From a virus (lineage: Duplodnaviria; Caudoviricetes), in IMG/VR virus record IMGVR_UViG_3300017716_001697, positions 32,001 through 96,000 of that record: a stretch of DNA of 64,000 nt. One strand, written 5' to 3'. Positions 20,789 to 21,018 of this stretch are shown in pieces. Both the position numbers and the translations under genes were made by a program. The notes beneath the pieces are model-generated. The model was not told the origin of the DNA and did not search any database. It saw only the letters and a list, made by a program, of their open reading frames with translations. The stretch's first letter is position 1; each line of letters begins with the position of its first letter.

Positions 20789-21018
20789 TGATTAGTAGGA
20801 GGTAGGCCCAGAAGTAGCCATCCTTTAAAGAGTACGAAGCGGAGTCCCTGCCTAAGTAAGATTCGACTGAAAGGGCGGTAACAGCCGCGGATTGAAGATC
20901 GTCTATTTGTTTAACCCGACGAGGGATTGAACTAAGTGTGTAATGCTCATCGAATGGTTGATCACACAATGTAGCGATATGTCCTAGAAGTTTTGGTGTG
21001 GTAACACACTACTAATCA
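20789..21018 (+). ncRNA. Structured RNA containing a 23S rRNA L11-binding-site (H43) look-alike
   Basis: 10-bp closing helix TGATTAGTAG/CTACTAATCA; AGGAGGTAGGCCCAGAAGTAGCCATCCTTTAAAGAGT at 20797-20833. Confidence 0.7.

Follow-up and report, generated by a model that had tools for sequence, protein, structure and literature searches.

The window, that is, the whole stretch of 64,000 nucleotides analysed here, belongs to a virus record of 364,576 bp with terminal repeats from a freshwater metagenome. On its plus strand, positions 19302 to 20735 encode a 477-aa protein with DUF2828 and DUF7788 domains (the Ro-like protein), which domain matches and a fold search assign to the TROVE/Ro60-plus-vWA fold. 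A G+C-rich hairpin (20753–20768, plus strand) followed by TTTCTGCTG lies 3′ of this gene and resembles a terminator with a weak T-tract. The element studied here spans positions 20789 to 21018 on the plus strand and is present once in the genome. The motif GATAAATA (21034–21041, plus strand), which is like the T4 late promoter TATAAATA, separates it from the gene directly 3′ of it, which encodes a staphylococcal-nuclease homologue of the secreted type (21056–21478; N-terminal signal-peptide-like segment MMKKYILTTLLLATLTTAHA). The same strand carries four tRNA genes within 2 kb, of which the nearest begins at 21523. The phage also encodes a BLUF (blue-light FAD sensor) domain protein at 17538–17984.

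An earlier note on this DNA had described the element as a 230-nt, ORF-free stretch closed by a 10-bp helix. The length and the helix were confirmed: positions 20789–20798 pair perfectly with 21009–21018. The plus strand is indeed free of ORFs, but a mechanical ORF of 72 aa with a TTG start overlaps the element on the minus strand (20751–20969). The indels among the relatives of the element are not multiples of three.

In bacterial 23S rRNA, the GTPase-associated centre (GAC) consists of helices H42–H44 (E. coli 1051–1108) and is the 58-mer to which uL11 and thiostrepton bind. To find rRNA-like segments, positions 20650–21150 were scanned permissively with Infernal. One notable match was obtained in this 501-nt search, in which positions 1080–1157 of the LSU_rRNA_bacteria model aligned to 20782–20860 with 21.6 bits (E 1.2e-4), below the gathering score of 50. 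This part of the model corresponds to the top of H42, H43 and H44, and H43 and the junction were aligned at a posterior probability of 1.0. Compared with the Rfam consensus for bacteria, the H43-like core is identical at 32 of 36 positions. A recount against the E. coli string given in the earlier note gave the same figure as before, 29 of 35, and the AGAAG equivalent to the A1067 region is present in the loop. A degenerate pattern of the core matched once in the window and not at all in 100 shuffles. The fold z-score of the whole element is only −1.3. When the 64-kb window was scanned at Rfam gathering thresholds, tRNAs were the only matches and no rRNA was detected; the view that the element is not a fragment of an rRNA gene thus stands, the LSU match being limited to 1080–1157.

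From the LSU alignment and the comparison with relatives, the parts of the element were assigned as follows, all on the plus strand. The 5′ strand of the closing helix (20789–20798), which is the equivalent of H42 by the pairing in the family, is followed by G1056 and the H43 mimic (20799–20824; E. coli 1057–1081). The stems of the latter are AGG/CCU and GGC/GCC, its 9-nt loop is CCAGAAGUA, and A1067 and U1072 are both present. The junction strand UUAAAGAGU (20825–20833; 1082–1090) contains A1088 and the pair U1082-A1086 of the mini-hairpin. The alignment of relatives places a lineage-specific insert of 158 nt (20834–20991) between U1090 and the H44 strand, where it is closed by A20834-U20991 and C20835-G20990, with predicted hairpins at about 20839–20888 and 20889–20984. 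After the UUUG linker conserved in the family (20992–20995), the H44 mimic and the sequence ACA (1101–1103) occupy 20996–21008, the H44 equivalent proper being 20996–21005. It forms the pairs G1091-C1100 and U1092-A1099 around the loop GUGGUA, so that A1095 and A1096 are both replaced by G. The 3′ strand of the closing helix (21009–21018) completes the element, and weaker pairing may lengthen this helix to about 20780/21025. It is nearly certain that the element is a discrete, structured, non-coding phage RNA that rebuilds the 58-nt GAC. The same near certainty applies to the assignment of its 5′ and 3′ parts, which jointly form the H43 hairpin, the 1082–1090 junction and the H44 hairpin, with a plain helix in place of H42.

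Two details of the earlier model were not borne out. An inner closure between GTAGG and CCTGC (20847–20851), which the Infernal alignment also used, can be drawn, but neither the family nor the close relatives support it. Likewise, the distal segment AAGTGTGTAATGCTCA (20935–20950), which had been taken for H44, is not conserved in the three closest homologues; this region is the 5′ strand of a covarying hairpin (20936–20940 with 20963–20967).

The same core was found by blastn in unannotated gaps of the tRNA arrays of the Pseudomonas phages pf16, Astolliot and UNO-G1W1 and of the Ralstonia phage RSP15. Three pattern scans of IMG/VR gave 61, at least 119 and 84 stretches. When the H43 hairpin, the H44 box and at least six of seven closing pairs were required, the family comprised at least 107 non-redundant phage RNAs of 94–416 nt (median, 207). 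Only two of 70 non-redundant matches to the H43 word in viral contigs continue as true rRNA. The family order is closing helix, G1056, H43, 1082–1090 junction, insert, UUUG linker, H44, ACA and closing helix. The conserved box YUUUGG-YGUNNNNRC-ACA is the H44 look-alike, and a search for complementarity to the 5′ flank, which was blind to H44, landed right after this box in approximately 38 of 52 loci. The insert varies with the lineage and measures between 38 and 331 nt. It is closed by pairing of the base that follows AAAGAGU with the base that precedes UUUGG. A second insertion site, after A1077, carries a hairpin in the 3′ strand of H43 in seven members (L136, L139, L144, L146, L149, L150 and L173). 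The window element has all the features of the family: the closing helix flanking G1056 and the ACA after H44 has 10 perfect pairs (at least 7 bp in the family), the H43 core with the AUCYUUUAAAGAGU junction lies at 20799–20833, and the UUUGG-YGUNNNNRC-ACA box, with position 1072 matching 1092–1099, lies at 20992–21008.

The 17-nt pattern of the H44 box matched cellular genomes 106 times, which is about the chance level. Of the 81 cellular matches retrieved, only nine were real elements; all nine came from MAG contigs, and isolate genomes yielded none. Rfam 15 contains no family for the phage GAC mimic, and full-text literature searches found no description of such a phage RNA; we did not find the family described in either source. 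Two further RNA-like stretches were noticed beside members. In Astolliot, two tandem elements are present (2655–2990 and 2995–3170), the canonical GAC mimic being preceded by a longer relative with a degenerate junction (…GCCAUAUUAAGUGU…). In RSP15, an unannotated stretch directly after the mimic (about 3300–3540) has a tRNA/tmRNA-like acceptor and T-arm end, with a partial Rfam tmRNA match of 20.6 bits and no ARAGORN call.

Covariation was counted by a script over the 107 non-redundant elements. A contact between C1072, C1092 and G1099 has been described for the rRNA domain (PMC2952862). This contact is reproduced in the family: C1072 occurs with a C-G pair at 1092–1099 in 75 elements and U1072 with a U-A pair in 27, with five exceptions (Fisher p 6e-23, a significance that is inflated by relatedness). 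The window copy, with U1072 and U1092-A1099, fits this base-triple covariation. The 1082-1086 pair also covaries (UA, CG and AU), and the corresponding pair of the J31 mini-hairpin is C-G in the rRNA of H. marismortui (PMC2952862). The H43 pair 1058-1080 is G-C, A-U or U-A. At positions 1–9 of the closing helix, 82–100% of the members are paired and all four Watson-Crick types occur; at positions 10–12, the paired share is down to about 50%. Thus, the idea of a stand-alone mimic of the L11-binding GAC, as opposed to decayed rRNA, is upheld by a family in which tertiary contacts are preserved by covariation.

The positions A1057, G1059, U1060, G1062, C1064, G1071 and A1073 are 98–100% conserved. 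In contrast, positions 1067 (A in 80%), 1070 (A in 87%) and 1095 (A in 87%; G in the window) are variable. A1070 and A1095 are invariant in rRNA, take no part in tertiary contacts and are dispensable for the fold; A1095 contacts cofactors, and the binding of uL11 requires the tertiary fold (PMC6239185). Since structural positions are kept and 1067, 1070 and 1095 vary, selection acts on the fold and not on the bases that contact factors or antibiotics. Judged by sequence comparison, this distribution of constraint agrees better with a ligand that recognises the fold, for instance uL11, than with contacts to thiostrepton or GTPases. C1065, C1066, G1095 and G1096 are peculiar features of the window copy. 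Among these, C1066 is unique, the other 106 of the 107 members having U, and given C1066 and G1095 the window copy may be weakened.

A tRNA gene is present within 2 kb of the mimic in 43 of 53 loci, and all 199 neighbouring tRNAs are on the same strand as the mimic (none on the opposite strand). In 11 of 50 elements a tRNA ends 2–10 nt before the closing helix, and in 18 of 50 a tRNA starts 1–14 nt after it. Because the tRNAs abut the helix, tRNA processing would release an RNA ending at the closing helix. The window mimic, unlike about half of the members, abuts no tRNA. No protein neighbour within about 4 kb is conserved, the largest cluster spanning three of 53 loci; this absence points to a ligand supplied by the host. 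A bL12 C-terminal-domain-like ORF of 126 aa was noted in the genome of the window phage, outside the window (G000:C1:242188-242283, locus L067; PF00542, 34 bits, above the cut-off). As a partner of the RNA, bL12 was rejected, such an ORF occurring in only three of 51 other carriers and in none of 14 complete ones. Separately, a tRNA with a CUA anticodon (amber suppressor; tRNA-Pyl according to ARAGORN) is encoded at 1705–1780 of the window and at 724–800 of locus L020; such tRNAs in two phages that are not related but both carry the mimic may hint at TAG recoding.

The fold of the Ro-like protein was examined with an AlphaFold model (pLDDT 77), which matched Ro60/Rsr/TROVE structures over the full length. 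The top 13 PDB matches of the fold search were all Ro60 or Rsr (E 2e-9 to 3e-5; TM 0.5–0.58), and a PDB sequence search with the same protein returned nothing relevant, so that Ro60 appears only in the fold search. On the basis of this model, the upstream gene encodes a genuine TROVE/vWA fold. Upstream of it, at 18040–18935, lie tandem small-RNA units, each built from a 6–7-bp stem whose two strands enclose (G)UACAGCA and a variable interior and are followed by UG and a U-run. Two of the units are preceded by near-consensus sigma-70 promoters (18010–18037, matching at 12 of 12 positions, and 18281–18309). The last unit (about 18820–18935) has the T-arm-like sequence GGTTCGATTCC and a D-arm-like segment, as in YrlA. 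These tandem units probably represent the Y RNAs that go with the TROVE protein.

Proteins 75–85% identical to the Ro-like protein are encoded in 23 IMG/VR loci. A homologous RNA follows the Ro-gene hairpin in L204–206, L209 and L210, and in the other loci this place is taken by a tRNA-Gly or a small gene; the hairpin and TTTCTGCTG are kept in the relatives that have the mimic. The RNA is an accessory element: a pattern search did not find the mimic in two close relatives with complete genomes of 369 kb and 363 kb. Four versions of the RNA, from the window and its three closest homologues, were aligned. The GAC parts are conserved with compensatory changes, and the insert keeps conserved blocks and the covarying hairpin mentioned above, although the neighbouring protein is only 77–80% identical in these relatives. 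No homologue of the insert was found outside the clade, and no paralogue in the genome of the window phage. Given the block-conserved insert, the GAC part may not be the sole functional part of the RNA.

No promoter was found between the Ro-like gene and the mimic. The motif GATAAATA occurs 21 times on the plus strand of the whole window and not once on the minus strand (about one copy expected), usually just upstream of genes or tRNAs (for example, 16249, 18016, 21034, 21486 and 22239). Its position 3′ of the RNA suggests that the mimic belongs to the upstream transcription unit. Since no promoter separates the two and GATAAATA appears only after the RNA, read-through from the Ro-like unit is the likely source of the RNA, as far as it can be predicted from the DNA. 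No RNA sequencing run contained the window phage, the sole full match being a DNA run. The member L020 is present in four marine metatranscriptomes of one study, in which a large spike of depth is caused by a 27-nt word common to real rRNA. In three of the runs, the element is part of long contigs and is covered as deeply as the adjoining sequence. In the fourth, a 200-nt contig covers the element at 10.6x against 0–2x in the flanks, a difference for which carry-over of DNA is possible. The 200-nt contig is suggestive; taken together, the four runs give weak evidence of a discrete, abundant RNA.

The mimic shares with the 23S GAC the H43 stem-loop, the 1082–1090 junction and an H44 with a 2-bp stem and a 6-nt loop, and the contacts 1072/(1092–1099), G1071/(G1091-C1100) and U1082-A1086 are kept or covary. 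In contrast to the 23S GAC, it is a free-standing phage gene, a generic helix of 9–10 bp replaces H42, the insert (158 nt in the window) and the UUUG linker separate U1090 from G1091, position 1101 is A and not U, and positions 1067, 1070 and 1095 are relaxed; the four base changes of the window copy listed above are further differences. In a 23S gene, rRNA continues on both sides of H42–H44 and H44 comes directly after H43 (AAAGAGUGCGUAAUAGCUCAC); the window element shows neither arrangement.

The rplJ/L10 leader, an autoregulatory leader of ribosomal proteins, mimics the H42–H44 region. The phage mimic resembles such leaders as an extra-ribosomal RNA imitating a ribosomal-protein site on rRNA. 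However, the leaders are cis-acting parts of mRNAs and loose mimics, whereas the phage RNA stands alone among tRNA genes and is nearly exact, tertiary structure included. It is not located in the 5′ UTR of a ribosomal-protein operon, the flanks being the DUF2828 gene and the nuclease in the window and tRNAs in the family, and the Rfam leader families gave no match to it. Phage phiTE reportedly makes a pseudo-ToxI RNA that serves as a decoy. The mimic resembles this RNA and phage tRNA arrays in that a phage carries a copy of an RNA from the host or from a defence system that could work as a competitor, and it also lies within such arrays. It differs in that the copied thing is a ribosomal RNA domain, for which the target is a candidate only.

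We tentatively favour a mechanism, a little short of probable in our estimation from sequence comparison, in which the mimic acts in trans as an imitation of the ribosomal GAC and its most likely ligand is host uL11. Read-through from the Ro-like gene would probably yield the transcript in this phage, and transcription of tRNA arrays would do so in most relatives; the RNA would fold into the GAC tertiary structure. The folded RNA would then act in trans as a copy of the ribosomal site. It would be recognised by the C-terminal domain of uL11, which reads the folded GAC and not particular loop bases; the uL11 contact residues considered here come in part from the crystal structures. The RNA may sequester uL11 that is free or exchangeable, or bind it in a free particle of uL11 and RNA, and the capacity of the host stalk base would be changed during infection, for example in uL11-dependent activation of RelA. 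Titration of uL11 would need very high levels of the RNA, uL11 being abundant, and pre-assembled ribosomes might retain their uL11. Titration of L10, which the earlier note had also considered, is unlikely since the H42 part is a generic helix without conserved sequence past the first pairs.

A wider version of this mechanism is conceivable on the same comparative grounds, though we regard it as rather unlikely. Large phages of many lineages would make a free-standing piece of the ribosome, and a soluble stalk-base particle loaded with uL11 would compete for RelA, for a translational GTPase, or for a toxin or defence sensor aimed at the GAC. If this is true, mimicry of rRNA domains would be a general, unrecognised strategy of takeover or counter-defence, placed in tRNA arrays beside spare tRNAs.

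Alternatively, the free GAC copy might be a decoy substrate that soaks up ADP-ribosyltransferases, nucleases or modifying enzymes of the host or of competitors and thereby shields the ribosomes, which we consider unlikely. Phage tRNA arrays are where phages keep spare RNA copies, and the mimic lives in such arrays; in the window clade, it adjoins a Ro-like RNA-surveillance gene and Y-RNA-like units. A precedent for attack on this site is the bacterial toxin Tre23, which ADP-ribosylates nucleotides 1095–1098 in H44 of the GAC (PMC8661411). However, within the family the H44 loop varies most at 1095–1097, the known target region, and the window copy has G in place of A1095. Such a decoy would also compete with tens of thousands of ribosomes, and we know of no defence system aimed at the GAC.

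The wide range of insert lengths, which depends on the lineage, the second insertion site in some members, and the blocks and covarying hairpin kept in the clade insert while the neighbouring protein diverges, would also suit an arrangement in which the GAC module is a handle that binds protein or stabilises the RNA and the variable insert is the working part. This is improbable: members with inserts of 38–55 nt hardly exceed the GAC, no insert motif is common to the family, and the window insert has no homologue outside its clade.

That the RNA is a Y-RNA-like cofactor or a substrate mimic of the adjacent TROVE/vWA protein is distinctly improbable. This explanation draws on the Ro60/TROVE fold of the upstream protein, on the position of the RNA after the Ro-gene hairpin without a promoter of its own, on the same layout in the clade loci named above, and on the binding of misfolded rRNA precursors by Ro proteins, as stated in the titles of the PDB matches. 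Like Y RNA and YrlA, the mimic is non-coding, has a terminal helix and a module imitating another RNA, and is encoded in the window beside a TROVE-fold gene. However, it imitates rRNA and not tRNA, it lacks the stem/ACAGCA/UG-U-tail signature of the upstream units, and the Rfam Y RNA and YrlA models did not match it at E values up to 10. The DUF2828 gene is nearby in only two of 53 loci, which removes the link to the Ro-like gene as a general feature of the family. Moreover, this gene occurs anywhere in only seven of 51 carrier records, for which reason we rejected it as an obligate partner, and it is absent from 12 of 14 complete carrier genomes (present in two). In Rak2-like jumbo phages, about 180 kb separate the mimic from the Ro-like gene, and most close relatives of the window phage have a tRNA or a small gene at the position of the mimic. 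Thus, the adjacency is particular to a small clade and not to the family.

A direct trap for translational GTPases, RelA or thiopeptide antibiotics, a kind of ribosome in pieces, is very improbable. The whole factor-binding RNA domain is copied with A1067 present, and EF-G binds isolated GAC oligonucleotides weakly in vitro. However, the bases that meet factors and thiostrepton (A1067, A1070 and A1095) are the relaxed positions, A1095 being G here. In addition, no copy of the sarcin-ricin loop was found in 50 inserts (14-mer, up to two mismatches), Rfam E-value scans of the window, RSP15 and Astolliot revealed no further LSU segment, and the rarity of bL12-like genes among carriers also speaks against such a trap. 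Finally, a functionless relic of captured rRNA or a chance resemblance, for which the sub-threshold Infernal score and the low fold z-score could be cited, is excluded for practical purposes by the covariation, since more than 100 independent phage copies show compensatory substitutions in both secondary and tertiary contacts, every copy has the complete domain with a closing helix of its own, and true rRNA is rare among the viral matches to the H43 word.

To return to the mimic as an imitation of the ribosomal GAC in trans, RNAs that imitate rRNA sites are, to our knowledge, known only as cis-acting leaders of ribosomal-protein mRNAs, and phage RNA decoys are known to us for toxin-antitoxin RNA and, arguably, tRNAs. 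The RNA described here is a stand-alone phage copy of a whole rRNA tertiary domain, kept by covariation in more than 100 phages from soil, fresh water, the sea and the gut. Cultured phages carry it (Pseudomonas phage pf16, Ralstonia RSP15, Cronobacter GAP32, Pectobacterium CBB and Aeromonas 4_4572), and the 58-nt domain is among the best-studied RNA-protein systems, so that binding and structure experiments are routine. With its two insertion sites, the family supplies natural "expansion-segment" variants of the GAC. A phage copy of the GAC would give viruses a new means of interfering with the machinery of translation or with its surveillance.
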